DNA of 64,000 bases from positions 7,054-71,053 of the IMG/VR virus record IMGVR_UViG_3300042892_002528. One strand, given 5' to 3'. Both the position numbers and the translations under genes were made by a program. The DNA is from a virus. Shown in pieces: positions 8,029 to 64,000 of this stretch. Position 1 is the stretch's first letter. Each line of letters starts with the position of its first letter. The notes below the pieces were generated by a model, which had not been told where the DNA came from, searched no databases, and was given only the letters and a program-made list of their open reading frames with translations.

Positions 8029-8037
8029 AAATATTCC

Positions 8038-8406: not shown

Positions 8407-8418
8407 TGTTAAATTTCC

Positions 8419-10989: not shown

Positions 10990-11509
10990 TGGCTAACTCT
11001 GTAAATAGTTCGATAGCAAAGGCAAAACACTCATTTGCTTCCGCAGCCATGTTAACGTCTAGTTTTTGACGTAATGCACTAATCAACTCACTACGATTGC
11101 TAAATTCGTACATAGTAGCTGCGCCAGGAACAACTTTCTTAATCATCTGACCACCGTACAGGTCGCCCATATGACGAACATATAAGTGAGCTAAAATCTG
11201 ATTATCACTTAAATTTCTATTGGTTATGTAATTGATATATTTTAATGTACTAGGATACAATGTTGTTTTGCATTTTGGTAAATTATCAAAATCAATGCCA
11301 ATTTGCTCACTACGCTCTATGCCATTTAAGCCGTTTAAAAGGTTTTTTCTTTTAGCCACTGCTTCAAGAGAATAATAAATTGCTTGCTGATTATATAAAA
11401 AGTCAGCATAAACATTTTCAGGAATATTACCACCTAATAACAGCTTGGTAAAAGGATGAGCTTCTGCAAGTTCATGGTTATCGTGGGTTAATTCTTTTAG
11501 AGTGGTCAT
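10970..11509 (-). CDS. hemO: heme oxygenase
   Basis: LKELTHDNHELAE (proximal His) and LAHLYVRHMGDLYGGQMI signature. Confidence 0.92.
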   Translation of the reverse strand: MTTLKELTHDNHELAEAHPFTKLLLGGNIPENVYADFLYNQQAIYYSLEAVAKRKNLLNGLNGIERSEQIGIDFDNLPKCKTTLYPSTLKYINYITNRNLSDNQILAHLYVRHMGDLYGGQMIKKVVPGAATMYEFSNRSELISALRQKLDVNMAAEANECFAFAIELFTELANEHNIQ

Positions 11510-44721: not shown

Positions 44722-47700
44722 TTATCTCCTTGCCAGTAATGGTGTTGTACCATAGTTGGCTGTCATTGCTTGTTGAGTATTTGAGCCTACGCGATTTAGT
44801 TCGCCTGCTACCATATCTCCAACCATTACTTCAATACGACGATTTCCACGTGAATCCATAGTCTCTTTAGTAGTTGCTTTTTCGCTGCCATAGTTGTTAA
44901 CAACTACGTCTACATTGCCGCCACCACCCCCACCACGAACTCCAAGATTACCGTTGTTGTCACGCTTTAGGGGCATGATAGCTTCGGGACCTGCTTCGCC
45001 CATTAATCCAGTACCTTTTGCAAATTTAAATAGTGTAGGTTGATCGACAACTGAATTTGTAAACATTCCGCCTTTGGCATACATTTTTAGTCCAGCATCG
45101 TATACTCCGCCTTTGGCCGAAAGAGTTAGAGGCCCAATCATACTTTCTGGTAAAGGTCCTACAAAACTATTGCTACCTGGAACACCTACACCAGTAAGCA
45201 TACCAAGCATACCACTTAGTCCACCTGCACCAGCAAATAGTGCGGACATTTGTGCACGCATTTCAAATCTAATTAAATCTACTAGCATTTGGTCTACTAG
45301 ACTTTTAAAATCCAGCTTACCTGTTCTGGCAAATTCAGCTAAAGCATCTCCCATACTTTGAAAACTATTTTCTACAATCTTAGAGAAACCAGTCATTTTA
45401 CTACCAAGTTTTTCGTTTAGATCAATAGCATTCATCTTTTGTAAGTTAGTGGCTCTTAAAGCTTCACTTTGACCATTAATAGCCCTAGTCATGTTTTCTA
45501 CTGCTTCGTAATCCCCTGCTAAAGCAGAGTCACCGCTGGCTTCAATAGCCAGAATTTTTTGTTCTATTAGGCTTTTCTTAGCTATTTCTTTATCTATTTT
45601 TGATTGTTCTTCAGCACTTTCTCTAGATACTCGTCCCCTGTCTAAGTTTGCTTTTTCTTTGACAGCGTCAAAACTAGTTACTAAACCTAATTCTTTTCTA
45701 TAATTTAATTCGTCTTCTGCCTGGCTGCTTTGAGCATCTGCTGTAGTTTTCTTAAACGCAGCTAGTTTTTGCTCTATATCAAAGCGTGCTTCTATAAGTT
45801 TTAATTGGTCTTGCAAACCCTTATTATCTTTTTCTTTTTCTTGCCTAGCTATGACTAGTTGTAAATTTACTTCTGCTAAAGCTATGCTTTTAGTATCTGC
45901 TGGTGAAGCTAATTTAAGTGCCTCAATATCGTTTATTATCTTTTGACGCTCTAGTAGGAATTTATTATTTAACTTTTCAGTTTCAAGTAGTGCTGTTACT
46001 TTTACATTCTGCTCTGAAGAGAATCCAACTAAACTACTAATTATACCTAATCTAGCTATATCTTGATCAAGCAATGCTTCGTTTAAACTATTTAAAGTTG
46101 TAGCTTGCTGCAGTTCTTGGGCTTTAAGTCTAATTCTATTCTCGACACCTTTATTGTCTTTTTCTTTTTCTTGTCTTTCTTTAACTTTGTCCAATAAAAA
46201 TTGTTGCTTATCAACTTCTAAAACTCCTTGAGCCGAGTTATCCAGTTTTGCATTTTTTATTGCTGTTTCGTATCCAAGTATTTCTTGATTAAACTTACTT
46301 TCTAACAGCTGCATGTCTAACATTTGTTTTTGTGCAAGATTTTCTGAGCCATTAAGTGTATTAATGCTCATTAAAATATCTTGTCTTGCTATATCTTGTT
46401 GCAGTATAGAATCTTTAACAGCTGCTATTTGCTTTTGATTAGCAAGTTCACCTAAGTTTACTTTTTGTGCAGTATCTAAAACGTTTGCTTTCTTTTCGCC
46501 CTGTTTTAATGTTAAAGCGGCAAACTGTGGGCCCAGCATATTATTTAATTTAGCAGCAAGATCTTTTTCATATTTAGTTTGTGGATTAGCTGGATCTCTT
46601 GCATCTAGTCTACCAGACGCTGAGAGATCTTCAGGTTTAATCATACCAGTAGTACCAGCAACTATATTTTTAAAACTTGTAGTACCTGCTAACCTGGCTT
46701 CTAGTTCTCTTATTATTTCTGGAGATTTATTAGAATCTTTAGCTTCTTGCAAAGCCATTCTAGCATTAGATTCTGCTATTGTTAGTTCTAATTCAGTATT
46801 AGATCTAATTAACGCCATAGTAGTAGTTATTGCGTCAATTTGAACTTTTATTTCTTGATCTTTTAACTGTCCAGAACGTGTTGCAGCTTCTGCTCCAGAT
46901 AGTGCACTAACCGTAGCTTGCGCAATAGTTAATGCAGCTTTTTGAGAAGCTTGACCAAGCGCAATATCTATATATTTTGCACCATTTTTAAAAGCAAGAT
47001 CTGCACCTGTTGCAAATAGCTGTGAGGCTACAACAAAAGATCTAGTGTCTAATCCGATTTGTAAAGCTTTAACTTCTTCCTTTTTACCTTCAAGCTCTAC
47101 TATTCTACTTTGAGCTATTGCTTTTCGTGGTACAGACTTAGTCTCTCTTTTTATTTGTTCTTGTTTGTCAATATCTTCATTTATTGTAGAGAGCTCTTGT
47201 TTATACTTTGCCGCTTGTTGAAGAGTAGTTTGAAATTCTTGTCTTATATCAACAAACTGCTGGACGAATTCAGAACCAAATTGAGCTGTAGCTTTAGGAT
47301 TATTAGCAAATTGATTGAAAGCTGCATTTATTGCATCTACACCTTTATTTGCTACATCTTGCATTGATGAAGATAAAACTTGTAAGTTATCGCCTACTTT
47401 AAATAATGGATTACTATTAGCAGTTGACTGAATAAATTCGTCATATGACTTAGTAAGTGCATCAATACTATTTTTAAAAGTCTGCAAAGAAGCATTAGTT
47501 TCACCTAATTTATTTTGTAGGATTTTAACACTAGCTGCATATCTGTTTTGGGCAGCTGTACTAGTTTTAAATCTATCTGTTACAGTTTCAAGATCTAGAC
47601 TTTGTACGCCTATTGCATCTTTAAAAGCTTTTCCAGCTTCTTCTCCCATTCCTGCTTCACGAAATACTTTTAATTGAGATTGTACTGTTGTTGCTAAAGA

Positions 47701-49758
47701 TTTTGCTCCTTTTGAAGCTATGTCTTGGTTAAATATTCCTGAAAGCACATTAGTAAAATCATCCCAGCCACTATCTTTAGTTACTTTTAACAATTCTTTC
47801 GTAGTTTTAATTTGTGTTTCAATACTGTCGGTTACTGCCTGACTTGCATTTGTTAATGCAAGAAATCCAGCTATTGAAGCTGTACCTATAGCGGGTTGTT
47901 TTCTTAAATAATCTATAGTTCTAGTCGCACTTGCAACTGATTCTGTAACACCATCTATAGCTCCATTGAAGGCGGTAGTTTCTTTACTTGTTTTTGTAAG
48001 TATAGCGTCAAGTATACCAAAAGCTGCAATTGCAGCACCTATAGCCATACCATAGGCTCCAAATGCCGAAATAGTTGTACCTAGCTTTTGTACAAACATA
48101 CCTGCAGTAGCACTAACCCTAACAAGGCCTCTATCAAAGGCAGTTAATTTAGGGGCATTTTGCGTTATGGCTTTGCCGTGTTCGTCAACTCCAGTTTTTA
48201 CTTTTAAATATCCTTCTTTTGATGCCGCAAGGTCTTCATTTAATTTTTGCCAAGCTGCACGCATACCTAATAATGACTGGGTTTCTGCAACATTAGATCT
48301 AATAGTATCTTTTGCTATGTTCTGTAATTTTGATTTATTAATCACGTCATTTGCAAAAGCAGTACTCCACCACTTTTCAGAACTGTCAATAAGTGTTTTA
48401 CTGGCCATATCGCCAACTGCAGCTGATTGTGCACGAATAGCTTTTAAATTTGCAAGATGTGCTTTAAGTCTGTCTGCTTCTTCTTTATTAGTTTTTGCTA
48501 AAGTTTTTGCGCGATTTTCTAGTGATTTTATTTCAGTATCTGTTAATGCAAAAGGATCTTTACTTGCTATTCCAGCATAGTCTACTTTTGTACCTTTAGT
48601 AAAAGTTTTGCCTGTTGCAGCTAACGCTTGTAACTTACTCTGAGTATCTTTTTGCTTTTTAAAATCGCGCTCTGCTACAGCTGCTCGATCTGCTGCCATA
48701 GTACTAAAAGCATCTTGTTGATTTGTATACATTCTTGTAAATGCTTCGGTGCTTTCATTAGCAGTTCTTTTTAAATTTTCTCTGTAATGTCCTAACGCAG
48801 GTATAGCACTTTTAACTATTGAAGCACCTATTGCGGTTAATATTGCTAATAATCCTGCAGGACTTTGTGATAACACACTTACTAGGGGCACAATAATTTT
48901 ATTAGTTAAGTCTAGTGCTACAAAGCTTAAATTCTTTAAACTTGCTAACAACTTATCATAAGGGTTTGCAGGTATATCAATAGAATTAAATTTGTCTATA
49001 CCTTCTGTTAATACAGCGTTAGCAAATGCTTGACGTCTTTCAAAATCAGTTAATTGAGACGCAGCTTTTCCTATACTACGAGCGTAGTTTTCAGTAGCAG
49101 GACCTATTTTTGTAAATAAACCCAGTTCATCTAACAATTCAGGCTCTAGTTTACTAATACCACGCGTTAATCTACTAATAGCGTCAGGCATAGCAACACC
49201 TAAAGCCTTAGATGCTTTATTGGCTACTTGACCTAATTGTTCCATTTGTTTACCGGACAATCCAGCAGCAGTACCTTTTGTAGTTGCTTCCATTGCTTCG
49301 CGCATACTAATTGCGCCGTCGGTAGCAGTCATTAAATTTTTAGCAATACTGCCTAAAGCTAGTCCAGTAACGGCACCTAATTGATTCATACCTTGAATCA
49401 TATTACTAGTATCTGCAGCATCACTTAACGCGCGGAAAGCCGCACCTGCTGCAAACAAATTAGCTGCGTAAGTAGCATATAAACGTACTAGGCCGTCAAG
49501 TCCGCGAGCTTGATTTGCAAAGTCACGACCTGATGCGCCAGTAGACCCGGCACTACCCCTGGCAATATCGTATTCATTGCCACCCATCATAGCGTTTTTC
49601 CAACCGCCTTTGCCTTTACCTCCACTGCCGCCTTTGCTCATCTGTTTTTCAAGTGAGTCATAGGTTCCTCGAACCTTTTTGAGACTCTTGTCAGTATTTT
49701 CAATGGATTGACCAACATCTTCTAATTTAATGTGTAAAACTGTCGTATTTTCAGCCAT
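44722..49758 (-). CDS. tail tape measure protein
   Basis: 1678 aa helical; T5 pb2-like YATYAANLFA and KLEPELLDELG; C-terminal AKGG..GLMGEAGPEAIMPL. Confidence 0.9.
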   Translation of the reverse strand: MAENTTVLHIKLEDVGQSIENTDKSLKKVRGTYDSLEKQMSKGGSGGKGKGGWKNAMMGGNEYDIARGSAGSTGASGRDFANQARGLDGLVRLYATYAANLFAAGAAFRALSDAADTSNMIQGMNQLGAVTGLALGSIAKNLMTATDGAISMREAMEATTKGTAAGLSGKQMEQLGQVANKASKALGVAMPDAISRLTRGISKLEPELLDELGLFTKIGPATENYARSIGKAASQLTDFERRQAFANAVLTEGIDKFNSIDIPANPYDKLLASLKNLSFVALDLTNKIIVPLVSVLSQSPAGLLAILTAIGASIVKSAIPALGHYRENLKRTANESTEAFTRMYTNQQDAFSTMAADRAAVAERDFKKQKDTQSKLQALAATGKTFTKGTKVDYAGIASKDPFALTDTEIKSLENRAKTLAKTNKEEADRLKAHLANLKAIRAQSAAVGDMASKTLIDSSEKWWSTAFANDVINKSKLQNIAKDTIRSNVAETQSLLGMRAAWQKLNEDLAASKEGYLKVKTGVDEHGKAITQNAPKLTAFDRGLVRVSATAGMFVQKLGTTISAFGAYGMAIGAAIAAFGILDAILTKTSKETTAFNGAIDGVTESVASATRTIDYLRKQPAIGTASIAGFLALTNASQAVTDSIETQIKTTKELLKVTKDSGWDDFTNVLSGIFNQDIASKGAKSLATTVQSQLKVFREAGMGEEAGKAFKDAIGVQSLDLETVTDRFKTSTAAQNRYAASVKILQNKLGETNASLQTFKNSIDALTKSYDEFIQSTANSNPLFKVGDNLQVLSSSMQDVANKGVDAINAAFNQFANNPKATAQFGSEFVQQFVDIRQEFQTTLQQAAKYKQELSTINEDIDKQEQIKRETKSVPRKAIAQSRIVELEGKKEEVKALQIGLDTRSFVVASQLFATGADLAFKNGAKYIDIALGQASQKAALTIAQATVSALSGAEAATRSGQLKDQEIKVQIDAITTTMALIRSNTELELTIAESNARMALQEAKDSNKSPEIIRELEARLAGTTSFKNIVAGTTGMIKPEDLSASGRLDARDPANPQTKYEKDLAAKLNNMLGPQFAALTLKQGEKKANVLDTAQKVNLGELANQKQIAAVKDSILQQDIARQDILMSINTLNGSENLAQKQMLDMQLLESKFNQEILGYETAIKNAKLDNSAQGVLEVDKQQFLLDKVKERQEKEKDNKGVENRIRLKAQELQQATTLNSLNEALLDQDIARLGIISSLVGFSSEQNVKVTALLETEKLNNKFLLERQKIINDIEALKLASPADTKSIALAEVNLQLVIARQEKEKDNKGLQDQLKLIEARFDIEQKLAAFKKTTADAQSSQAEDELNYRKELGLVTSFDAVKEKANLDRGRVSRESAEEQSKIDKEIAKKSLIEQKILAIEASGDSALAGDYEAVENMTRAINGQSEALRATNLQKMNAIDLNEKLGSKMTGFSKIVENSFQSMGDALAEFARTGKLDFKSLVDQMLVDLIRFEMRAQMSALFAGAGGLSGMLGMLTGVGVPGSNSFVGPLPESMIGPLTLSAKGGVYDAGLKMYAKGGMFTNSVVDQPTLFKFAKGTGLMGEAGPEAIMPLKRDNNGNLGVRGGGGGGNVDVVVNNYGSEKATTKETMDSRGNRRIEVMVGDMVAGELNRVGSNTQQAMTANYGTTPLLARR

Positions 49759-50726: not shown

Positions 50727-52406
50727 TTAAACTGCTGCGCGGTAAACGATAGTTGCTTCGTTAGACTCTGTAATATCGTAACCAGTACCTGCAAAACCTT
50801 GAGCTGTAAAGTTAATTGTTGTAGAAATAACTTGCTCTGTGTTAATTGTAGGAATCTGCAACATAGCTGCAGGTAGCTTGATTTCAACACCAGTAGCATT
50901 TGTACTAGGTCCGCCAAGTTGTACATTAATTGTAAACTTAGGGTCGACTGTTGTAGCTGATTGGGCCAGCAAATCAGATAATAGTCCACCACTTTCAAGA
51001 CTACCTGTTTTTAGGTATGCATTGATAGTGCCGCTTATAGCGCGCGTACCTGTGAAGTACGTAATAGGTAAGTTAACTGTACCTAAGTTAGCAGGTGTCA
51101 AATACGTTAAGTTATTAGCAAAAGTGATGTTTCCACCAGTTAAAGCAATAGTATACACAGTACCAACATTAGCTGCAATTGTAGGAGTTGCAGCAGCAGC
51201 TGAACCGCCACCACCAGTAAAGGTAATTGCTGGTGCAGTCAAATATCCAGAACCTGCGTTAGTAATTGTAACACCAGTAATAGTAGAAGTACCTATAGTA
51301 ACTGCACCTGCAGTGGCGCCAGCACCATCACCAGCAATAGTGGCTGTTGGAGCAGAAGTGTACCCAGTACCAGCTGTTGTAATTACAATAGCTGTTACAC
51401 CGCCACCAGAAACTGTTGCGGTACCTAGTGCAGTTACACCATTAGCAACCTGAGGGGCAGAGAATGTTACTGTTGCAGCTGTGTAGCCAGTTCCAGGAGC
51501 AGATACTGCTGCTGCTGTTACACCGCCACCAGACAATACTGCGGTACCTGTAGCTGTTACACCATTAGAAGGTGCTGCAGCAAAAGCTACTGTAGGTACA
51601 GAGGTATAACCAGAACCAGCGGTACCAACTGTAACGGCCGTTACGGCTCCGCCAGCAGTGGCAACAAAATCATTGATACCGTCATTAACAATTAAAGTGC
51701 TCAACTTGTTAGTAATATAACGAGCTGCGGTATTCTTGGCAAGCGCAGTATTAGTGCCTGCAAAGCTACTGGTTGAAGTACCTACGTTTGTAAGCGCAAC
51801 AGGACTTGCTGTATCTGCTGCAGCCTTATCTACTACGCGAATTGCGGAACCTTTACCGGCCCATGCAACTGCAGCAATAGCGTCAATACCAAAATCAATA
51901 GTAGCAGAATCTAAGGCGCAGTTATCAATAACGTAACCAGCATTATCAAATAGGATAATTAAACCAAAAGGCAATAATTGATGTTTATTAGAATTAGTAA
52001 ATCCAACAGTACCAGTAGATGCTGTAGAAGTCCAAGCGGCACCAGCGGCACCAAAGTTAGCTGCACCACCAAAAGCATTCCATAAATACTGCTCTTCGGC
52101 AGTAATTGAACTACCTGTGTTATGTGGGCGAATATATGTAGAGAAAGTAAAGTCTACTGGCTCTAGGGCAGTGTTAAAACTGCGCTGACCACGAACAGGA
52201 GCAGCTCCTGCCTCGTTTAGTGTAACTGTATCTACAGTAGTATTTTGTGAAAAGCTCATGCCTTCCAGCACTTGAATTTCGAAAGTATTAGTTGCGGTCA
52301 TGGGACTTCCAGCATTTTTGAAGTCACCAATTTTTACACGACCGAAACTGTCAATGTTAGTAGTAAAGAAGACTCTACTATTACGAATTAAATTAACTGC
52401 TGCCAT
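50727..52406 (-). CDS. major tail tube protein (T5 pb6-like) with internal repeat insertion
   Basis: LIRNSRVFF, EIQVLEGMSFSQ, RGQRSFNTAL.P.DF.FSTYIRP, NNLTYLTP, FTGTRAISG. Confidence 0.88.
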   Translation of the reverse strand: MAAVNLIRNSRVFFTTNIDSFGRVKIGDFKNAGSPMTATNTFEIQVLEGMSFSQNTTVDTVTLNEAGAAPVRGQRSFNTALEPVDFTFSTYIRPHNTGSSITAEEQYLWNAFGGAANFGAAGAAWTSTASTGTVGFTNSNKHQLLPFGLIILFDNAGYVIDNCALDSATIDFGIDAIAAVAWAGKGSAIRVVDKAAADTASPVALTNVGTSTSSFAGTNTALAKNTAARYITNKLSTLIVNDGINDFVATAGGAVTAVTVGTAGSGYTSVPTVAFAAAPSNGVTATGTAVLSGGGVTAAAVSAPGTGYTAATVTFSAPQVANGVTALGTATVSGGGVTAIVITTAGTGYTSAPTATIAGDGAGATAGAVTIGTSTITGVTITNAGSGYLTAPAITFTGGGGSAAAATPTIAANVGTVYTIALTGGNITFANNLTYLTPANLGTVNLPITYFTGTRAISGTINAYLKTGSLESGGLLSDLLAQSATTVDPKFTINVQLGGPSTNATGVEIKLPAAMLQIPTINTEQVISTTINFTAQGFAGTGYDITESNEATIVYRAAV

Positions 52407-55261: not shown

Positions 55262-57217
55262 TCAGGTTGCTGTGTACTTGTGTGCTGCAACAGCGTTACC
55301 TAAATTAGTAGTAACACGTGTCATGCCAGTACGGAGGCTAGCCACCATAACGCGACGTTGTGTTTCAACCAACTCTTGGGTATCAATGCGGAGACCGCGC
55401 TGATTACCAACGATAAAGTTGCCTGGGTGCAATGCAATAGCGCCTGCAACACCAGTACCTGGGGAAGCGAACTCTGCAGAGACCAACACAGGGCTTCCAC
55501 CGATTTGACCGATTTGACCGGTTAACAGTGTAGCTTGTGTACCAACTTGGTTCATTGTTTGGAAGGTTGTGTCTTCCAGCAATTGGTAATAAGTATCAGT
55601 ATTAATGATATAAATTACTTCTGATGGATCCAGACCCCATGCACCTAAACCTTGACGCAATGTGCGAAGCTTAGCAACGTTCATGCCGGCGGCAATAGTG
55701 TTACCAGTAGCAGTGGTGTTAGTAGCCCAGTTTGCCAAACCTTTGACAGGGTCGGAACCAGAACCAGCACCTAACAAGAAAGCCTTGTCAACGGCGCGAG
55801 CAACACGACGAATCATACCGTCACGAATCATTGGCATCAAAGCGATCAAAGAATCTTCTTCTTCTTCGTATGCTGTATACTCGTTTGTGGCAAGTTTATA
55901 AGCATTCAAAGTGATTTCTTTGAAAGCGTGGGTTTGTGTAGCACCAGCAGAAGCGCCAATAGTTGATGTACCAGGAGCAGCAGCAACGTTACCAAACTCA
56001 GCGTTAGTAACCCAAGTAGCAGTTCCTGCTTCTGGATTCACTGGCATGGTCATGACATTGGTTTGCATAGCGATGTTGCGGAAAATAGGAGCAACAACTA
56101 AACGACGACGAACTTCATTTTCCATGTTTAATGAAACTTCAAGTTCCCAAGTGCCGGTTGTGCCTGAAGGCTGGTGAGCACCGTATTTTTGTACTAATTC
56201 ACGACCAAATTTTGTGCCGTCCAATGACTTACCAGCCATTTTAGCCAACATAATTGCTTTTTCTTTGTCAGCGTAAGCCAAAACGTCTTTGCTGTCTTGG
56301 AAAGACATTTTTGATTTTGTGATTGCTTCGATTTCAGCAGCTTTTTCTTTCAAAGAAGCCTCTAAACCAGCGATAACTGATTTGCTTGAATCTTCAGCAG
56401 CAGCTAAACGCTTCTCAACTTCGGCCATCAAGCGCTCAGCACCTGTGTCGCCAGTAGAGATAGAAGCAACAGCGGCTTTAACGCGTGCATCTAATTCGGC
56501 TTCTGTTTTATCAGCAGCGGCTTTTTCGGCCAATGCTTTTGCCTGTGAGTCGGCGATGGCTTTAGCAGTGAGCTCAGCCGCTTTGTTAGCTGCATCAGCC
56601 AACATTTGTTCTAATTGTTTAGGATCCATTTCCCATTCCTTTTTAATTTCGCTGATTGCTTCCGTTGAGGATTCTAGCCCTTTAGCTGAATCGCTTTCGG
56701 GTGCAAACTGCTGTTTGAAAGATTTAAATTCTTCGGCTGTATCAAACGCCTTAGAAAGACTAAATAGTGTATTTTGATTAGCTGGTACTGACACTACTGA
56801 AATTTCGTGCAGTTCTAGCTCTTTTACCACAAACAACTCTTTGGCTGCATCATATTCCGCATCTACGATTCGGAAGCCGATACTAAATGCCGTTAAGATG
56901 CCATCTTTTACAAGATTGAAAACTTCGTCAGCTGCTGAAGAAATACGGGCTTTAACCCACAATCCTTTACTGTCAACTCTGTGATCTACCATCCTACCAA
57001 CTGGCTCGCTATGGTTGTGATATGCCAAAATTACTGGATTCTTCAAATAATTTTGTATACCCTTTTTCCATACACTTGCTGGGACAATGTCGCCTTGTCT
57101 ATCAATGTCATCAGTACTTGCGTACCCTTCGATTGTTATACTAGTTGTCTTTTCGTCGGTGGTATCGCTCTTGATAAATGAACTGTTTAAAAACAGTATT
57201 TTACTTTTATCTACCAT
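55262..57217 (-). CDS. prohead protease (HK97 type) - major capsid protein fusion
   Basis: IEGYAST..DRQGD, LAYHNH, FSIGF, EISVVSVPANQ (protease), then coiled-coil delta domain and HK97-fold capsid (GQIGGSPVLVS); no internal stop. Confidence 0.9.
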   Translation of the reverse strand: MVDKSKILFLNSSFIKSDTTDEKTTSITIEGYASTDDIDRQGDIVPASVWKKGIQNYLKNPVILAYHNHSEPVGRMVDHRVDSKGLWVKARISSAADEVFNLVKDGILTAFSIGFRIVDAEYDAAKELFVVKELELHEISVVSVPANQNTLFSLSKAFDTAEEFKSFKQQFAPESDSAKGLESSTEAISEIKKEWEMDPKQLEQMLADAANKAAELTAKAIADSQAKALAEKAAADKTEAELDARVKAAVASISTGDTGAERLMAEVEKRLAAAEDSSKSVIAGLEASLKEKAAEIEAITKSKMSFQDSKDVLAYADKEKAIMLAKMAGKSLDGTKFGRELVQKYGAHQPSGTTGTWELEVSLNMENEVRRRLVVAPIFRNIAMQTNVMTMPVNPEAGTATWVTNAEFGNVAAAPGTSTIGASAGATQTHAFKEITLNAYKLATNEYTAYEEEEDSLIALMPMIRDGMIRRVARAVDKAFLLGAGSGSDPVKGLANWATNTTATGNTIAAGMNVAKLRTLRQGLGAWGLDPSEVIYIINTDTYYQLLEDTTFQTMNQVGTQATLLTGQIGQIGGSPVLVSAEFASPGTGVAGAIALHPGNFIVGNQRGLRIDTQELVETQRRVMVASLRTGMTRVTTNLGNAVAAHKYTAT

Positions 57218-57226: not shown

Positions 57227-58402
57227 TTATTGCTGATTATCTGTGGGCCTACCACCTTTCGACGGATCAGCAGCCGAACCCGCAATATTGGCGGGTATTC
57301 TTATTTCGTCATTGCCATCTTTTGGCTCATAACGTAATTCTTTTCTTGCTTCATTAGCTGTAATGATGCCTGCATTGACTAAAGTCGAATGGTAAGCAGC
57401 AATATCTTTTAATTCTGGTTGCATTGCCGATACTGAACTAGTAACTGCTTCAATATCGTATCCATAGTATCGTTCTAAACTTGATGTAAATTTACGAACA
57501 ACCGGCATAACTGTTTCTAAATAAAATAATCGTAGATTAGGCGAAATGTTAGCATTATTTCCACCAGCTAATAAAATAGGTGGGATGCCAATACATTGCA
57601 TAATTAGTTCGTTGTGTGTTTTAATTGATTGATCAAAATCCATATCTTTGAAGTTTTGATTTGATACTTGTGCAGGCTTCAATCCTGAATCCAGAATAAC
57701 TGGACGCTTGCCGCCTTGTTTAGTTGAATATTTCTGTAACCAGTATTGAATTGTTTTTTCTTTTGCGATCTGTGAAAGCGTATTTTCGCTAGTTAAAACT
57801 AAACCAAATACAGCACCATTTTCAAAGAAGTTCTCTTGAAACTCTTTCATTGCATATAAAGTAGCAATGCTTCGTTGTGCTGCTTCTAAGCGTGAAGCGC
57901 CGCGATATATACTTTGACTATTAAGATCACGGAAGTGAAACACTTCTGGTTCTTTAAAATCAACCATACCGTTATAACGATACCCGCGTATAAATGTTTT
58001 TGTATCAGGCAAAATCTCAACTGATGTTGCAGGCAAGTGGTACATAAATACACCATCAAAGTGTATAAACACATTGCCTTCCAAGATCAAATCTGTGAAG
58101 ATTGCTTGGCGAAATTCTTGAGTGCTTTGATAGGGGTTAGGTCTGAAGTTCAAAAGTGTGTTTAGTGACTTTTGACGAATTCCAGCAACAACGCCTTCAT
58201 GAATCTTATCTTTTACGTCGTAGTCAAGTGAGCCAGCTGCATTAACAAGCATACTCACTGAACGATTAACTGCTTCTAGTTTTTGAAAAGCTTGACGATA
58301 TGTTATCTTGCTTTCTGTACCAATTTGCGTACCTGCTTCTTGAGCAATACGAGTTTGAGCTGGATTGAATTTTTCAACAATCCAGTCTGTAAATCTTGAC
58401 AT
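57227..58402 (-). CDS. portal protein (HK97 family, T5 pb7-like)
   Basis: LLNFRPNPYQS, DLILEGN, FFENGA, GIPPILL, GIITANEAR. Confidence 0.92.
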   Translation of the reverse strand: MSRFTDWIVEKFNPAQTRIAQEAGTQIGTESKITYRQAFQKLEAVNRSVSMLVNAAGSLDYDVKDKIHEGVVAGIRQKSLNTLLNFRPNPYQSTQEFRQAIFTDLILEGNVFIHFDGVFMYHLPATSVEILPDTKTFIRGYRYNGMVDFKEPEVFHFRDLNSQSIYRGASRLEAAQRSIATLYAMKEFQENFFENGAVFGLVLTSENTLSQIAKEKTIQYWLQKYSTKQGGKRPVILDSGLKPAQVSNQNFKDMDFDQSIKTHNELIMQCIGIPPILLAGGNNANISPNLRLFYLETVMPVVRKFTSSLERYYGYDIEAVTSSVSAMQPELKDIAAYHSTLVNAGIITANEARKELRYEPKDGNDEIRIPANIAGSAADPSKGGRPTDNQQ

Positions 58403-58411: not shown

Positions 58412-58849
58412 TTAAGTGAACTCACTGAAAAAACTACCAAAGCTCTTTTTGGGTACAACTGCTTCCACCACACCACCAGTATGTTTTGCACGCTGCGTCT
58501 CTATCCAGTGAGCCTGTTTGGGTTCACTGCCAGGGCGGGGAGCTTTACCGTAAACACTGTGTAACGCTACATGATGACGATTACAAAGGGTGTAAACTTG
58601 GTCATATAACTCTACTTGGTGCTCATCAATAAACTCATCTCGCACAGCTAAAATACCGGCATCTGTTGAAATATCGTAACCCTTGGCTTCAGACCATTTG
58701 TCTAGGAGTATAGTAACTGAATGTAGGTGATGGAGTTCTAAGTCTGTGGCAGAGCCACAAACGCAACACTCCGTTTTCTTCTCGTAGGCCGCTTTGGCCC
58801 TATCACGAACCCACTTTACAGGGATTCGCTTATTTGTGTTTTTTGCCAT
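58412..58849 (-). CDS. HNH nicking endonuclease (T5 SciB-like)
   Basis: KWVRDRAKAAYEK...CCVCG....LELHH, TLCNRHHVALHSVYG; same position as in T5; ATG 58849 preferred over track start. Confidence 0.78.
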   Translation of the reverse strand: MAKNTNKRIPVKWVRDRAKAAYEKKTECCVCGSATDLELHHLHSVTILLDKWSEAKGYDISTDAGILAVRDEFIDEHQVELYDQVYTLCNRHHVALHSVYGKAPRPGSEPKQAHWIETQRAKHTGGVVEAVVPKKSFGSFFSEFT

Positions 58850-58878
58850 TATTTCAAAGTACTCCACAATTACCTAGT

Positions 58879-58927: not shown

Positions 58928-60214
58928 TTAAACAGTATAGGTGTACAGCGCATATCGAACTGCATCGGCCATGTGACTATAATCATCATGCATTGGTCGT
59001 TCACGTTGTAGCCCCTCACGTTGGTCCCAGCGATACTGGTCAAACATGGCTCGCACGTTAGTGCAATGTGGGGCAACCTTTAATCGACCCTGCTGTAGCA
59101 AGGTCTGAACATACGCAATGCCTGGTAAGACATCTTTTTTGGCTTTGGTAGTTGAAATGTTATATAAGTAGGCAAGGTCACCAGCAAATTGTGCGGCTGC
59201 CGAGTCGATAAACGTAACTTCAACTCCGTGCTTTTCATTAATTGCTGTAAATTCTGCTGCGTGTTCGGCTGTAGTCTTTTCCGACTTTAAGTATTCATCG
59301 ACAATATAAAAGCAATCGCGGTTCCAATCGTAAACGATAGCGCAATAAGCAGTAGCGTCTCGGTAACCAGGGTCGCATCCAGCAAACGCTTCGCCTTTAA
59401 TATCTTCTGGAATGTCAATAACATCTGTATCCTGTAGTGTATAAATCTGACCCTCAAATACGGAAAATGAGGCTAAATATTCTTGTTCGAACTCTGACTT
59501 TGACATTGATCGTCGCGCTTCGGCAACGTCCGACTCAGCCATGCGAGTATTTTCTGTGTAATCAGCTTGCAGGCTAATCCACTCGGGGAAACCGGGATCA
59601 AAACCACGCTGCCAAAATTGTGAAAACCAATTGTTTCGACCACGAGGTGTGGAGATAAAAATAGCTTTTGCTTGTGGCTTGTCCAGTGTAGGACGTAGTG
59701 CCACATTAAAGGCGGCTTCACCGCCTTCGCCTAGTGCAGCCTCGTCAAATATGATTAGGTCATATGATCGACCAACAGTACTATCAACGGTACTAAGAGA
59801 ACCCATACGAATGGTAGAACCGTTGCTGAGTTCGATAATTTTGTCTTTGAGGTTGTCACGTGCGACTTCGAGGTCGAAGTGTTTGATGAGTTTGCGTTGG
59901 AGTTCAAATGAGATCGAAGATAAGTTATAGTTAGGCGAAATGATTAAGACATTAGACCCAGGGACTAAGGTAACCAATTGACCGATGATATTGGCAATAT
60001 AAGTTTTGCCAAGCCTGCGTGCGAGTGCAGCACAGATAAACCTGTATTTGGGATCGTTGACTGCGTTGATTAAAGCAACCTGTGGGCGGTTGATTGTATC
60101 GTATACATCTAGCAGCTTTAGGTAATTTGTTATGGGTAGCTTAATAAACCTCTGTTGAGGATCAAACTCTTGGATAACGTCGACATTGATATCTGGTCGT
60201 GAGACTACTAACAT
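58928..60214 (-). CDS. terL: terminase large subunit (T5-like)
   Basis: Walker A ARRLGKT, Walker B LIIFDEAA, ISTPRG, EQEY.ASF, nuclease D.GY.D and HMADAVRY. Confidence 0.95.
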   Translation of the reverse strand: MLVVSRPDINVDVIQEFDPQQRFIKLPITNYLKLLDVYDTINRPQVALINAVNDPKYRFICAALARRLGKTYIANIIGQLVTLVPGSNVLIISPNYNLSSISFELQRKLIKHFDLEVARDNLKDKIIELSNGSTIRMGSLSTVDSTVGRSYDLIIFDEAALGEGGEAAFNVALRPTLDKPQAKAIFISTPRGRNNWFSQFWQRGFDPGFPEWISLQADYTENTRMAESDVAEARRSMSKSEFEQEYLASFSVFEGQIYTLQDTDVIDIPEDIKGEAFAGCDPGYRDATAYCAIVYDWNRDCFYIVDEYLKSEKTTAEHAAEFTAINEKHGVEVTFIDSAAAQFAGDLAYLYNISTTKAKKDVLPGIAYVQTLLQQGRLKVAPHCTNVRAMFDQYRWDQREGLQRERPMHDDYSHMADAVRYALYTYTV

Positions 60215-60607: not shown

Positions 60608-60910
60608 TTATATTTTGGGTCCGTTAAATATTTGAGTGCTATCTGTACCTGTACCTAGTACGCAAGCTATTTTATCATTAAACTGGATTATTGTCCAGGT
60701 TTTGGTTTGTTGGTTAACAAACACGCTGTACTTTGGTACTTCAGCACCAGGCTCTATACCTAACCACAAAGGAGTTTCTTTGTAATCACTACTTGTTAAT
60801 CCTTGTAGTAACATTTTAGTTTCTGTACAAGTTACAGGCTTTTGTATAATTAAGGGCTGTGCTAACGCCGCGCTTGATATAAAAAGTATTAATCCTAGTA
60901 AATATTTCAT
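60608..60910 (-). CDS. secreted hypothetical protein
   Basis: Signal peptide (ALA-Q); KPVTC...TWTII....ACVLG. Confidence 0.65.
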   Translation of the reverse strand: MKYLLGLILFISSAALAQPLIIQKPVTCTETKMLLQGLTSSDYKETPLWLGIEPGAEVPKYSVFVNQQTKTWTIIQFNDKIACVLGTGTDSTQIFNGPKI

Positions 60911-61380
60911 ACGCCTTCACCAGTAATTAAACGCTGCACTAGCTGTGAATACTTTGATCCATCTAGTGCGTCATTGATTTGTACGTTGACTTGTTTTTGT
61001 GGGCCAGTAGCTTGTTGCGCTTTGGCTAGCTGAATTTCACGATCCATTAAGTCCATTGACATTTTGTGCGACATTTGAAGTAGTTCAGCAATATCTTTGG
61101 CGCTACCAGTTTGTGATTCTTCCAACTCTGAAAACTTCTGCTTGATTAGTGCATCCATAGCACGTCGCATCAAAAATCTGTTGTTGTATCCACTATCAAA
61201 GAATACTGAATCAATGTATGCTTTTACTTCACGTTTAGCTAATAAGTTAGTTACCACTTCAGGGTCTAGATCAAGTTCTTGAGCTACGGCACGGGCGTCG
61301 TTAAGTTGGAGGTAGGCATTTGCTACTTCCAGTGCTTCCGGGGAGATACGTACGGTTTCAGCAGGTAGGTGAGTTGTCAT
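60907..61380 (-). CDS. terS: terminase small subunit (T5-like)
   Basis: ISPEALEVANAYL, EVKAYIDSVFFDSGYNNR, QVNVQIN; HTH-like N-terminus; position upstream of TerL. Confidence 0.75.
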   Translation of the reverse strand: MTTHLPAETVRISPEALEVANAYLQLNDARAVAQELDLDPEVVTNLLAKREVKAYIDSVFFDSGYNNRFLMRRAMDALIKQKFSELEESQTGSAKDIAELLQMSHKMSMDLMDREIQLAKAQQATGPQKQVNVQINDALDGSKYSQLVQRLITGEGV

Positions 61381-61400
61381 AGAATTGTCCTTTTTATGTG

Positions 61401-61429
61401 ATTATACCAGTTTAGGGATGTTTTAGCAA
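61401..61429 (-). promoter_or_regulatory. sigma70-type promoter TTGCTA-17-TATAAT with TG extension
   Basis: Upstream of terS and its AAAGGA RBS. Confidence 0.78.
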
Positions 61430-61485
61430 GTGTGGATTTTGGCACCTTAGGGTGTTTGCAAATTTTCCTTAAATAGGCCGTGTCA

Positions 61486-61613
61486 GGGGGCCCCTATACC
61501 CCTAGGGGTATATGTGTCTGATAACCCCCCCATACCCCTAGTAGTATGTTTTGAATACCCGAGTATTCAATTTAAATTATAGTACGAAAAATAGTTATGC
61601 AAATTTTGCATAA
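61486..61613. repeat. palindrome cluster at the strand switch
   Basis: GGGGCCCC, TATACCCCTAGGGGTATA, TTGAATAC-CCGA-GTATTCAA, TTATGCAAA-T-TTTGCATAA. Confidence 0.75.
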
Positions 61614-61618
61614 AGGGG

Positions 61619-61646
61619 TTGACCTCGTAAAAAATACGTGTAAAAT
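61619..61646 (+). promoter_or_regulatory. sigma70-type promoter TTGACC-16-TAAAAT
   Basis: First plus-strand promoter, upstream of HNH-like ORF. Confidence 0.6.
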
Positions 61647-61702
61647 ACAGTCAGAGGGAAGCAGATGGCAAGCCCTCATAATTGAATACAAAGGTTTTCA
61701 AA

Positions 61703-62065
61703 ATGGCTAAAAGCACACGTTCACCCCTTCAGCACTTCTTTGCAAAATCCCTGAAAATGGCACGTTCAAGGGATAAAATGAATAATCGGGTTTCAGATGA
61801 TAATGTAACTATTGATTATCTTTGCGGATTATATTATGGTCAAAACGCATTATGTTTTCATACTGGTGAAATAATGACTATTGAACGTGGATTAATAGAT
61901 GGTATTCCCTGCTTTACATTATGCACTATGGATAGAATAGATAATGCTCAAGGTTATAATGTAGGTAATATTATCTTGGCTTGTGATGGTATTAATCGGA
62001 TGCGTTCAGATATGCCATTATCTCAGTTTCGGGCATTATGCAACAAAATCGGAATGAATGGATAA
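61703..62065 (+). CDS. HNH-like endonuclease
   Basis: GQNALCFHTG, TMDRIDNAQGYNVGNIILACDGINRMR; ATG 61703 after AAAGG. Confidence 0.7.
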   Translation: MAKSTRSPLQHFFAKSLKMARSRDKMNNRVSDDNVTIDYLCGLYYGQNALCFHTGEIMTIERGLIDGIPCFTLCTMDRIDNAQGYNVGNIILACDGINRMRSDMPLSQFRALCNKIGMNG

Positions 62066-62069
62066 TATA

Positions 62070-62099
62070 ATATAATAAGGGGGAAACCCCTTATTATAT
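62070..62099 (+). terminator. hairpin with GAAA tetraloop
   Basis: ATATAATAAGGGG-GAAA-CCCCTTATTATAT. Confidence 0.6.
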
Positions 62100-62113
62100 A
62101 ATAGGATTATATA

Positions 62114-62254
62114 ATGAAACATAATACAATACCCTCGCATTATACTACTGCCCAAGTATATAGATTTAAACTGTTTTGCATTAAGCATGATATTCGTTTT
62201 AATAATATGACAGAATATCGTTCAGCATTATCACAATATTATTCTGGAGAATAA
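62114..62254 (+). CDS. small hypothetical protein (46 aa)
   Basis: Not in track; AGGA RBS; MKHNTIPSHYTTAQVYRFKLFCIKHDIRFNNMTEYRSALSQYYSGE. Confidence 0.6.
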   Translation: MKHNTIPSHYTTAQVYRFKLFCIKHDIRFNNMTEYRSALSQYYSGE

Positions 62255-62255
62255 A

Positions 62256-62414
62256 ATGGATTATCAAATAGTAAATGATTATATGGCTAGAAAATACTCT
62301 GCATATACTTGGGTTTTAAAACAGGGTAATAACTGTATATGGGTTATAATGAATAATATTAATATGTATTTTATTATCAAAGATAATAAGATAATGCGAA
62401 TTGATATTGATTAA
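62256..62414 (+). CDS. small hypothetical protein (52 aa)
   Basis: Not in track; GGAG RBS; MDYQIVNDYMARKYSAYTWVLKQGNNCIWVIMNNINMYFIIKDNKIMRIDID. Confidence 0.65.
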   Translation: MDYQIVNDYMARKYSAYTWVLKQGNNCIWVIMNNINMYFIIKDNKIMRIDID

Positions 62415-62655
62415 GGGTAAACCCTTAATCAGGAAAAGACCCTGATGCCAGCAGGGTTACTCAACGAAGTGAGCACTCACTTCGGCAATTTGGGCGCACG
62501 GAATCCGTGCGCCAGTGTGCAAGTTCGAATTCTTTTCGTGAGGGTGCTTTTGCAACTGGTCGCTTAAAGCGACCGCTAGTATTCAAAAAAGGTTTTTTAT
62601 GAATACTTTTGTTTGCAGGATTTTTTTAGAAAACCAAAGTACTACGCGCGGCGCG
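62408..62655 (-). ncRNA. putative multi-hairpin non-coding RNA / palindrome array 1
   Basis: No ORF; at least seven inverted repeats; lies downstream of leftward promoter 62660-62688. Confidence 0.4.
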
Positions 62656-62659
62656 CCAA

Positions 62660-62688
62660 ATTTTAGCAGAGTACAAAAGTGTAGTCAA
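62660..62688 (-). promoter_or_regulatory. leftward promoter TTGACT-17-TAAAAT with TG extension
   Basis: Elements conserved in the second cassette while the spacer differs. Confidence 0.7.
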
Positions 62689-62705
62689 TAGGTGTTTACA
62701 CCTAT
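62688..62705. promoter_or_regulatory. operator-like palindrome ATAGGTGT-TT-ACACCTAT
   Basis: Identical copy at 63432-63449; lies between divergent promoters. Confidence 0.65.
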
Positions 62706-62722
62706 GTTGTATTTTTACACAC

Positions 62723-62752
62723 TTGAACTTTTTAGGTTTTTTCTGCTATAAT
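62723..62752 (+). promoter_or_regulatory. rightward promoter TTGAAC-18-TATAAT with TG extension
   Basis: Upstream of small TM ORF and A2-like gene. Confidence 0.65.
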
Positions 62753-62775
62753 AAACACATGGTGAAAAGGTGAAA

Positions 62776-62889
62776 ATGAAAATGACTAAATTTGCAAACA
62801 AATTAATTCAAGATATTTTATGTGCTATTTTATTCGTTGCAATAACCTTTTTGCCATTGTGGGTATGGCTTGCGTTAATGAAGCCATGA
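62776..62889 (+). CDS. small single-TM protein (37 aa)
   Basis: Not in track; AAGGTG RBS; MKMTKFANKLIQDILCAILFVAITFLPLWVWLALMKP. Confidence 0.55.
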   Translation: MKMTKFANKLIQDILCAILFVAITFLPLWVWLALMKP

Positions 62890-62921
62890 TGTTATAATTT
62901 GTTTTTAAAGGAGAAAAGAAC

Positions 62922-63248
62922 ATGACTACCAAAGCCGTGAACTACACTCAGGATCAGACTGAGAAAATGATTGCCCAATACCAAGGCGGTATGACTGTTG
63001 AATCTATTGCAGATTCACTTGGCAAAACTGTTCGTTCTGTTGTTGCAAAATTGAGCCGTGAAAAGGTTTATGTTGCTAAAGCATACAAAACGAAATCAGG
63101 TGAAACACCAATTAAAAAAGATGTTCACGCTGATTTTATTGGTGATGCGTTGGGTTTGGCTGAATCTGATACAGAATCACTCACTAAAGCCAATAAAATG
63201 GCTTTGATGAAAATTGCTGACTTTATCAAGGCTGAAAAAACCTTGTAA
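62922..63248 (+). CDS. A2: T5 A2-like pre-early DNA-binding protein
   Basis: AAGGAG RBS; NYT...T..M...Y....IA..LGKTVRSVVAKLSREKVY...SLTKANKMAL resembles T5 A2; position after strand switch. Confidence 0.6.
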   Translation: MTTKAVNYTQDQTEKMIAQYQGGMTVESIADSLGKTVRSVVAKLSREKVYVAKAYKTKSGETPIKKDVHADFIGDALGLAESDTESLTKANKMALMKIADFIKAEKTL

Positions 63249-63274
63249 ACAAGGGGCTTATGCCCCTTGTTTTT
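63247..63274 (+). terminator. rho-independent terminator (possibly bidirectional)
   Basis: AAACAAGGGGC-TTAT-GCCCCTTGTTTTT. Confidence 0.8.
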
Positions 63275-63400
63275 GAATACCCAGGTTTTCAGTATTTTTT
63301 GAAAACCTAGGTATTCATTTTTGCGCCCGCTGCGAAGTAAGCACTCACTTCGCTATTAACTAGTCGCTTCAAGCGACTGTTGCGTAAAAGCAACAGGCGC
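63274..63400 (-). ncRNA. putative multi-hairpin non-coding RNA / palindrome array 2
   Basis: Four inverted repeats, three shared with array 1; downstream of leftward promoter 63404-63432. Confidence 0.4.
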
Positions 63401-63403
63401 CAA

Positions 63404-63432
63404 ATTTTAGCATAGTCTGTTTTGGCTGTCAA
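63404..63432 (-). promoter_or_regulatory. leftward promoter TTGACA-17-TAAAAT with TG extension
   Basis: Homologous to 62660-62688. Confidence 0.7.
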
Positions 63433-63486
63433 TAGGTGTTTACACCTATGTTGTATTTTTGCACACATAGTTTTTTATCGGTTTTT

Positions 63487-63496
63487 TGTGTATAAT
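63487..63496 (+). promoter_or_regulatory. extended -10 promoter TGTGTATAAT
   Basis: Upstream of HAD gene with AAGGA RBS; no clear -35. Confidence 0.55.
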
Positions 63497-63522
63497 CACA
63501 GAATACAGAAAAGGATTACAAA

Positions 63523-63999
63523 ATGGCTAAAATTAAAAAGGTTTCAATTTATGATATGGATGGAACTATTGTTTGCAGTTTGCATAGGTATCGCACAATC
63601 GTAGATGAGTCAGGCGAAAGAATAGATTTAAATTACTGGAGAGAAAATCAGGATTTAGCATTAAATGATTCTCTTTTGCCATTAGCCGAACAATATAAAA
63701 TGGATTTAAAAGATGAATCGTGTTATGTCATTATTGCTACTGCCCGTGTTCTTAATACCCCTGATTATACATTTATTAACTCGATATTGGGCGACCCTGA
63801 TTATATTATTTCAAGACCTGAGAATTCTAATATCTCTGGTAGTTTATTAAAAATTAATGGTTTGGCTAAGTTCTTTAATTTAGTTACATTTAAAGATGCT
63901 GAATTTACATTTTACGAAGATAATACAAATTATCTAAAAGCGGTTTGTGACAGATTTAATATAAGGGGTGTATATGTACCAAGTAAACAAGGGCATTAA
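63523..63999 (+). CDS. HAD-family phosphatase (polynucleotide 3'-phosphatase/nucleotidase-like)
   Basis: IYDMDGT (DxD), IIATAR, K, FYEDN motifs. Confidence 0.8.
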   Translation: MAKIKKVSIYDMDGTIVCSLHRYRTIVDESGERIDLNYWRENQDLALNDSLLPLAEQYKMDLKDESCYVIIATARVLNTPDYTFINSILGDPDYIISRPENSNISGSLLKINGLAKFFNLVTFKDAEFTFYEDNTNYLKAVCDRFNIRGVYVPSKQGH

Positions 64000-64000
64000 T

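Follow-up and report, generated by a model that had tools for sequence, protein, structure and literature searches.

The closest described counterparts of the elements reported here are the PeSL cassettes of T4-like phages. As two reports present them, these promoter-early stem-loop cassettes are intergenic units of about 100 bp, repeated through a plastic early region, in which a stem-loop terminator serves the upstream gene while a sigma-70-type early promoter with an A+T-rich tract serves the downstream gene (Arbiol et al., 2010, PMC2839356; Comeau et al., 2014, PMC4122927). The window considered here, a stretch of 64,000 nucleotides (positions 7054-71053 of a 71,053-bp IMG/VR viral contig, IMGVR_UViG_3300042892_002528), holds two intergenic cassettes of comparable design, at 62415-62769 and 63249-63522. 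Each carries on the minus strand a leftward promoter, here called PL, that reads TTGAC(T/A)-17-TGcTAAAAT-TTGGCGC and faces back toward the preceding early gene. Two other arrangements offer parallels: the short antisense RNAs that temperate phages transcribe convergently, of which lambda oop (against cII) and P22 sar are examples, and the back-to-back divergent or bidirectional promoters of bacterial systems, exemplified by lambda PR/PRM and by promoters with symmetric -10 elements.

Like the PeSL units, the present cassettes place a repeated intergenic stem-loop, an A+T-rich tract and a sigma-70 promoter beside small orphan genes, although most copies have a weak forward -35, and the gene content of close relatives may differ at the cassettes. 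They share no sequence similarity with PeSL, and the phages that carry them are T5-like siphophages and not T4-like myoviruses. Their best-conserved element is an extra consensus promoter facing the opposite way, they bear phased 18-bp boxes and other palindromic boxes, and recombination at them is something that we infer. As with oop and sar, an intergenic promoter is predicted to send a short untranslated RNA back over the preceding gene's 3' end. Each of those two, however, is one locus whose RNA has been mapped and whose target is known, whereas here there are 3-8 co-oriented copies, one per early unit, and the non-coding run before the upstream gene is often only ~55 nt. The likeness to divergent promoters lies in predicted starts ~106 bp apart, with palindromic boxes between and over the promoters, but here one partner lacks a gene of its own to drive, and the pair recurs at every early unit. 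Judged on sequence, the cassettes seem to belong to a known kind, that of repeated promoter-terminator cassettes with divergent or antisense promoters, and the added backward consensus promoter would be what is new. A search of the open-access literature, excluding supplements (T5 pre-early antisense features, freshwater T5-like phages, phage antisense starts), turned up no description of the element. The balance tips slightly toward a composite regulatory cassette that separates early (T5 pre-early-like) transcription units in a large, uncultured family of freshwater T5-like siphophages.

Read along the plus strand, a cassette opens with a hairpin or terminator where the upstream gene ends, followed by two boxes, TGAATAC-N4-GTWTKCA, at a 26-bp phase and by optional palindromes. 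Next comes the backward PL (TTGACA-17/18-TGnTATAAT, then TTGGCGC), after it ATAGG-N8-CCTAT with a T-rich tract, and finally a forward promoter, PR, with a good -10 and a weak -35, for the next gene. This anatomy, its conservation, the common orientation of the copies and their restriction to the early cluster are direct observations. In the window, PL1 has its -35 (TTGACT) at 62688-62683, its -10 (TAAAAT) after TGc at 62665-62660 and TTGGCGC at 62659-62653, while PL2 has TTGACA at 63432-63427, TAAAAT after TGc at 63409-63404 and TTGGCGC at 63403-63397. With initiation assumed about 7 nt past the -10, the predicted minus-strand starts fall near 62653 and 63397. A consensus scan of 61000-64000 returned 26 promoter-like sites against 12.4 in shuffles. 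PL2 headed them, matching the consensus at 11/12 positions, and PL1 was among the 10/12 sites that followed, with TG present in both. These two are the only copies in the whole 71-kb contig, which ends just past the next gene.

It is conservation that carries the case for PL. With the Dmp-like protein encoded by the last gene of the window, 80 related IMG/VR loci were retrieved at 75-100% identity, and the family was searched with GCGCCAA-N21-29-GTCAA, a pattern that fixes only TTGAC and TTGGCGC in the minus-strand reading. Across 81 related loci and the window it occurs 304 times, 299 of them in the window's orientation, with 174 distinct cores. Positions that the pattern left free read as follows in the 245 unique contexts: TATAAT forms the -10 in 211 of them, with TAAAAT in a further 33 (244 together), 218 have a spacer of 18 nt and another 24 one of 17 nt (242 together), the sixth base of the -35 is A in 217, and TG stands at -15/-14 in 182, as it does in both window copies. 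In information content the -10 scores 2.0 bits at every position but the third (1.4), against 0.2-1.3 bits in the spacer. The spacer sequence thus drifts while the hexamers stay fixed, which is the signature of a promoter under selection. PL is very probably a real sigma-70 promoter of the extended -10 class, and it is the best-conserved element of the cassette across the related phages.

Five near-complete relatives (93-100%, ~100 kb) hold 3, 6, 5, 6 and 8 copies, all co-oriented and confined to 2-6 kb of the early cluster beside the TerS end, and a reversed control pattern gave 0 matches in these same five. Open reading frame (ORF) maps place every PL copy between plus-strand ORFs, antisense to the early genes. 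A wider scan of IMG/VR found at least 120 further stretches with the motif. Among the matches listed, which come from 115 further loci, there are 395 instances, 93 of the 98 multi-copy loci are co-oriented, and most of the long ORFs in the flanks are encoded on the strand opposite to that of PL. Bacterial genomes totalling 596 Gb gave the pattern 43 times against ~26 expected by chance, according to our own arithmetic; as this count is near chance, the element belongs to phages. A host or bacterial origin of the motif was rejected on the same count, and the few contigs with several hits resemble phage DNA in metagenome-assembled genomes of unrelated taxa. An earlier note on this stretch had proposed a leftward promoter at each cassette, antisense to the early genes and with more copies past the end of the window: the consensus scan and the conservation among related phages bear out the first claim, the ORF maps agree with the second, and the copy numbers of the near-complete relatives support the third, for the equivalent point in those relatives.

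The same conservation bears on whether PL matters at all. If only the forward terminator and promoter counted, the backward promoter-like sequence could be an inactive by-product of an A+T-rich palindrome or of repeat spread, a reading that we find hardly credible. It can draw on the palindrome (at least 8/10) that extends across the -10 and the next 4 nt in 105/168 unique PL cores (63%), so that an operator could explain part of the conservation, and on the A+T-rich region being full of promoter-like sites, about twice as many as in its shuffles. Against it, the 63 non-palindromic cores, both window copies included, retain the -35, the 17-18-nt spacing, the TG and the -10; the centre of the palindrome is asymmetric, favouring TG on the PL strand; and the -35 TTGACA, with its unconstrained final A, lies outside the palindrome.

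Late genes of the contig supply a comparison. The same design, TTGACA/T-17-TGnTATAAT, stands before several of them (at 49840, 32388 and 58907 on the minus strand, and at -39, outside the window, 39 nt ahead of its first base), fronting the tape-measure operon, the tail gene block and the HNH-portal block, in each case after a terminator hairpin with a T-run. Since promoters like PL precede these genes, the phage clearly uses them, and host sigma-70 polymerase appears to transcribe the late genes too, as it does in T5. These late promoters lack TTGGCGC, and a ribosome-binding site and gene follow them.

Around PL, the two window cassettes share several blocks in differing order. A 33-nt block, GTCAATAGGTGTTTACACCTATGTTGTATTTTT, is identical at 62684-62716 and 63428-63460 (two matches in the window, against 0 of 100 shuffles with any), and GCGCCAAATTTTAGCA is common to both at 62653-62668 and 63397-63412. 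Repeat searches recovered module M1, CGAAGT(G/A)AGCACTCACTTCG, as CGAAGTGAGCACTCACTTCG at 62465-62484 and as CGAAGTAAGCACTCACTTCG at 63333-63352, and module M2, GTCGCTT-N-AAGCGAC, as GTCGCTTAAAGCGAC at 62559-62573 and as GTCGCTTCAAGCGAC at 63363-63377. Two palindromes are private to one cassette, namely M3, GGCGCACGGAATCCGTGCGCC (62493-62513), and M4, CTGTTGC..GCAACAG, read from the sequence as CTGTTGCGTAAAAGCAACAG (63377-63396). Module M5, ATAGGTGTTTACACCTAT with a T-rich tail, is terminator-like on the plus strand; it occupies 62688-62716, adjoining the -35 of PL1, and recurs in identical form at 63432-63460. Inverted repeats with GAATAC lie at 62579-62617, where GTATTCA..TGAATAC includes one 18-bp box, TGAATACTTTTGTTTGCA, at 62600-62617, and at 63274-63317, where two such boxes, TGAATACCCAGGTTTTCA and TGAAAACCTAGGTATTCA, are spaced 26 bp start to start. 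At the upstream edges, a palindrome read from the sequence, ATTAAGGGT-AA-ACCCTTAAT, covers the stop codon of ORF 62256-62414 (62410-62429), and a palindrome like AAGGGTTTACCCTT is found again beside PL in relatives; an intrinsic terminator of the 108-aa gene, AGGGGCTTATGCCCCTT followed by GTTTTTG, lies on the plus strand at 63252-63274. The repeats and palindromes listed in the earlier note, shared and private, are all present where it placed them.

What that note had called the GAATAC hairpin is better described as a set of 18-bp boxes, TGNAWAC-N4-GTWTNCA, paired at a 26-bp phase. The box has 362 matches in 686 kb against ~8 in shuffles, and 296 of the 362 lie at most 250 nt to the left of a PL. 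Successive boxes stand exactly 26 bp apart in 103 cases, against 4, 4 and 3 at 25, 27 and 28 bp, and the proximal box commonly ends 5-9 nt before GCGCC. The half-sites are kept with or without hairpin potential, and the TGAATAC half favours one side, which together point to recognition by a protein: the box pairs look like predicted protein-binding sites. A further box, TGAATACCCGAGTATTCA, stands without a PL at 61552-61569, in the region where TerS and the first early gene diverge. In that region a palindrome, ATACCCCTAGGGGTAT, occurs twice, 36 nt apart, at 61491-61547, the second copy reading ATACCCCTAGTAGTAT. Its arms are those of an ATAGGGG..CCCCTAT box with their order swapped; the TGAATAC box comes after these palindromes and then a plus-strand promoter, TTGACC-16-TAAAAT, at 61619-61646.

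The remaining palindromes behave otherwise among relatives. M1 gave 43 matches in 15 variants at 30 related loci, M2 22 matches at 5 loci and M3 4 matches at 4 loci, while M4 gave 42 loose matches in 25 variants, whose arms partly vary independently; M1, M2 and M4 are present in some relatives only. The gap between the upstream stop codon and PL is 238 and 148 nt in the window cassettes, against a median of ~53 nt in relatives. Because this leaves room for just two boxes in a typical member, M1-M4 are optional inserts, and the window cassettes are long variants with extra ones. M5 seems to be a sequence motif and not a conserved stem, judging from the outer five pairs of ATAGG-N8-CCTAT, which are constant in 23/23 variants, and from the sixth, whose two sides change independently of each other and which is non-pairable in 12/23. 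The 18-bp boxes and PL are widespread; M1-M4 are absent from most relatives.

These variants also bear on structured RNA. The earlier note had seen in the cassettes a modular system of structured non-coding RNAs or decoys; in its RNA form, PL would drive stable transcripts of ~150-220 nt, composed of hairpin modules that sponge host defence or regulatory proteins. PL does look real and conserved, and the regions past it are free of conserved ORFs (cassette 1 does contain a minus-strand ORF of 41 aa, but a stop codon breaks it in the homologous cassette of the related locus L014). The first minus-strand terminator-like hairpins after PL lie at 62457-62439 and 63268-63241. The first of them, ACCCTGCTGGCATCAGGGT with the tail CTTTTCC, has 6 pairs, 4 of them G-C, and is a candidate 3' end for the leftward RNA of cassette 1; at the second, the G+C-rich stem of the plus-strand terminator 63252-63274 is able to fold on the minus strand too. 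The minus-strand folds lie far below shuffles (z of -3.76 and -9.81), and the two imperfect stems of the window place their mismatch as G.U on the minus strand. But the plus strand folds as well (-4.09 and -9.89), and family-wide, among unique hairpins with one transition-type mismatch, G.U is the minus-strand reading of 43 and the plus-strand reading of 36. No compensatory changes beyond chance mixing were found among the family variants of M1, M2 and M5. Most relatives lack the modules altogether, with their median of 53 nt before PL, and palindromes with centres of 1-2 nt make poor RNA loops. Rfam 15, searched at E up to 1, gave only GcvB (E 0.63; 17.9 bits against a gathering score of 42). 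The sponge is accordingly an improbable function, and the proposal of structured RNA modules is unsupported, for lack of covariation, of strand bias, of any difference between the folds of the two strands and of anything in Rfam. From these comparisons the cassettes do not appear to be a new RNA family. As for the sizes once proposed for the two RNAs, ~245 nt becomes a predicted ~220 nt, while ~150 nt agrees with a predicted 150-160 nt.

On its other side, PL faces PR. PR1, TTGAAC-18-TGcTATAAT, at 62723-62752 on the plus strand (10/12, with TG), would serve the 39-aa ORF and the 108-aa gene; PR2, a TATAAT at 63491-63496 lacking a good -35, would serve the Dmp-like gene. An exact plus-strand TATAAT follows within 220 nt of GTCAA in 177/246 unique cassettes, most commonly at 50-59 nt, the distance from the -35 of PL found in 71/177. 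The -35 of PR matches the consensus mostly at 2-4 of 6 positions and at 5-6 in 21/177. By sequence, PL would be the stronger-looking partner of this back-to-back pair.

Such an imbalance also suits a role at the level of DNA, in which PL, with its G+C-rich start (TTGGCGC) and a hairpin or boxes right behind it, docks or traps RNA polymerase, either as a roadblock between units or as a source of supercoils that opens the weak PR on injected linear DNA. Promoter escape is limited at consensus promoters and where the initial transcribed sequence is unfavourable; how transcription supercoils its template is described by the twin-domain model. Besides the closer match of PL to the consensus and the preferred distance of the -10 of PR from it, TTGGCGC is specific to PL, being absent from the gene-driving consensus promoters of the contig, and a hairpin or box begins 5-9 nt past GCGCC in 92 cases. 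The idea is nonetheless a proposal. Short untranslated RNAs give little rotational drag and hence weak supercoil coupling, some cassettes have a good -35 in PR (the 21 just mentioned), and the supercoil version would depend on the topology of the injected DNA. We consider a polymerase trap unlikely.

RNA evidence consists of unstranded contigs from four lake or freshwater metatranscriptome runs (X2-X5). They cover the coding units 61666-62482, 62772-63230 and 63428-64000, and the early genes are thus present in RNA libraries. The contigs break at the cassettes: 62483-62771 is uncovered, and cassette 2 is bridged by X5 only. Being unstranded, and with small RNAs usually lost from such libraries, this cover is neutral on RNAs from PL. 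Contigs of two studies start at 62772 and 62777, just past PR1, a weak hint for that promoter. In run X2, the contigs starting at 62777 and 61666 abut Illumina adapter sequence, which suggests real fragment ends 20-25 nt past two forward -10 elements; these could be processed or true 5' ends of early mRNAs. An X4 contig of a relative joins the M1 copies (62482 to 63333), skipping 850 nt that include the 39-aa and 108-aa genes. The junction is weak, since 8 unrelated letters are interposed and one flank is just 21 letters long, and may be a natural deletion or a recombinant at the module.

The interpretation that we favour, with somewhat better than even confidence, treats the cassettes as PeSL-like units of terminator, operator and divergent promoters, whose backward promoter would insulate the early unit before it, or attenuate it. 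Host RNA polymerase would initiate at PL and produce a short non-coding transcript, which would enter the boxes and the upstream terminator or continue antisense into the upstream gene. As a convergent promoter, PL would then act on the preceding unit through polymerase collision, or through pairing of its RNA with the upstream mRNA's 3' end. The boxes, together with the -10 palindrome in 63% of relatives, would be operators at which a DNA-binding protein sets the timing. The conserved blocks may double as crossover points that shuffle early genes in the manner of PeSL. The 36 loci whose Dmp is at least 90% identical show three upstream contexts (21, 14 and 1), and the cassettes probably act as crossover points too.

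Several observations weigh against this interpretation. TTGGCGC is conserved and specific to PL, and interference leaves it unexplained. A canonical minus-strand terminator within ~120 nt is found in only 45/248 unique cassettes, and a minus-strand terminator finder returned nothing in 155/248, so that no RNA length can be assigned across the family. It is odd for a merely modulating role that PL fits the consensus more closely than PR, and neither window copy has the -10 palindrome. The candidate regulator, the neighbouring 108-aa protein, has only a sub-threshold match to Sigma70_r4_2. Because the RNA data are unstranded contigs, the starts and the strand of PL transcripts rest on sequence. 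Lastly, T5 has no comparable array, so its biology cannot be borrowed: a promoter scan of T5 positions 1-11000 found no antisense array (43 sites, against 32.5 +/- 6.9 in shuffles).

The conserved TTGGCGC leads to T5 by another route. In the T5 record NC_005859 the nick consensus reads 5'-NPu pGCGCN-3' and every annotated nick falls on the same strand, and TTG-GCGC could be a T5-type, strand-specific nick site marking one strand of the first-entering DNA, the promoter being secondary. The motif fits this consensus in all PL copies, although the search pattern itself fixed it, and the elements are co-oriented (299/304) in a phage that is T5-like. The HNH gene between TerL and portal occupies the place of the gene annotated as 'nicking endonuclease' in Vibrio phage 234P1. 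The contexts of the T5 major nicks also resemble the CACTGGCGCAG-plus-hairpin units of relatives and the minus strand of the window at 62493-62530, where TTGCACAC-TG stands before the M3 palindrome, a likeness to the T5 nick site in the region of the injection stop signal (iss). On the other hand, PuGCGC is low in information, promoter-like hexamers are missing upstream of the four T5 major nicks, the window's other TGGCGC sites have no extended context in common, and the exact conservation of the -35, spacer, TG and -10 is left unexplained. A nick site as the main function is in our view very improbable.

The T5 major nicks (9748/9, 22336/7, 39746/7 and 78573/4 in NC_005859) share A/G-GCGC(A/G)GG, the first hyphen marking the nick, and, ~35 nt upstream on the strand that is nicked, the word (C)GTAA(T/C). 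In relatives, the last cassette of the early cluster has PL and then 2-3 iterated units, TTTT(G/C)CAC(T)TG..CCACTGGCGCAG, each ending in a G+C-rich hairpin. In the minus-strand reading they lie at ~10558-10760 in L061, ~10587-10790 in L068, ~10795-10960 in L081, ~9835-10040 in L055 and ~6645-6800 in L005; the corresponding region falls past the end of the window's contig. These units resemble the major nick context TTGCACAAAA-GCGCAGGG-hairpin (nick at the first hyphen) in the annotated injection stop signal of T5, and by analogy may be an iss, nick or iteron-like element. Two other leads were dropped. Outside the cassettes TTGGCGC is not skewed to either strand (5 sites minus and 3 plus in the window), which speaks against a Chi-like role, and 'PN25anti', taken up as a possible antisense T5 promoter, is a name that the papers found pair with variants of the N25 initial transcribed sequence.

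The first-step-transfer region of T5 resembles the present cluster in its Dmp homologue, its HNH gene and its small membrane and DNA-binding genes under host sigma-70 promoters, in its palindrome-rich non-coding DNA, in a GCGC-containing motif on one strand, and in the iss nick context, which is like the last cassette of relatives. It differs in lacking a repeated antisense consensus promoter, in having no DNA similarity and in its gene order and orientation. On this comparison the cassettes do not appear to be the T5 injection stop signal. A bolder combination would make the co-oriented TTGACA-18-TGnTATAAT-TTG-GCGC elements composite signals that mark and control the first-entering DNA in a large uncultured branch of T5-like phages: a polymerase-trapping promoter fused to a T5-type nick (or protein-recognition) site at the end of each pre-early unit, timing pre-early shut-off or linking transcription to how the injected end enters in steps or is protected, with the CACTGGCGCAG-plus-hairpin units as the counterpart of the T5 injection stop. 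This we regard as quite unlikely.

The source contig is linear, with 38% G+C and an estimated completeness of 66%, and by its genes belongs to a distant, uncultured T5-like siphophage of freshwater that is not T5 itself. TerL is 49% identical to that of Vibrio Demerecviridae (114-118-kb genomes), with 1171 records matched, mostly T5-like phages. The last gene, HAD-type, at 63523-63999 on the plus strand, encodes a homologue of T5 Dmp (E 8e-15, 36% over 85 aa), 28-32% identical to the products of dmp genes sited in the terminal repeats of T5-like phages. The gene order TerS-TerL-HNH-portal is that of Vibrio phage 234P1. Megablast and blastn of 61380-64000 gave zero DNA matches among 50,697 cultured phage records, and the cassette of a relative (L010:3240-3470) gave only 23-27-nt matches to cultured phages, which is chance level. 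The T5 setting assumed at the outset holds distantly, at the level of TerL and Dmp, and does not extend to DNA matches or to an array in T5. By analogy with T5, 'pre-early' is a reasonable label for the cluster, though not an established one.

The siphovirus structural module runs on the minus strand up to 61380 and includes the tape measure protein (44722-49758), the major tail protein (50727-52406), a protease-capsid fusion (55262-57217), the portal (57227-58402), the HNH protein of 151 aa (58412-58867), TerL (58928-60214) and TerS (60907-61380). The window also contains a tail fibre of 1547 aa with many collagen-like repeat matches (24545-29188) and a 1704-aa ORF without any PHROG match (32449-37563). 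From 61682 genes lie on the plus strand, beginning with an endonuclease VII/HNH-like gene and two tiny ORFs, followed by a hydrophobic 39-aa ORF (62770-62889), the gene for the putative DNA-binding protein of 108 aa (62922-63248) and the Dmp-like gene. The 108-aa protein belongs to an environmental family of 2820 clusters (E up to 0.001), the best 120 of which are all 105-127 aa long, and a Pfam search returned no domain above threshold. Its N-terminal half resembles T5 A2 weakly (BLASTP E 0.018; hhalign probability 0.6%), and homology to A2 was not accepted as established on these values; the alternative in the earlier note, A2-bound signals for two-step injection, is likewise unsupported.

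To our knowledge, the role of the palindrome-rich DNA in the first-injected segment of T5 is still unexplained. Pre-early shut-off in T5-like phages likewise awaits an explanation, and Klimuk et al. (2020, PMC7472727) state that how T5 switches between its gene classes is unknown. The cassettes bring to these questions a very large environmental family with a rigid and easily testable grammar, in which a backward consensus host promoter ends every early unit alongside phased boxes and TTGGCGC. Because the elements match the sigma-70 consensus, which the RNA polymerase of E. coli reads as well, tests in E. coli are probably feasible despite the lack of a cultured host. If the role of the cassettes proves ordinary, they still provide a clean description of promoter and terminator cassettes in an uncultured phage group. 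If the backward promoters are active, they would be a natural, repeated case of gene-by-gene antisense insulation, and a compact part for synthetic circuits.

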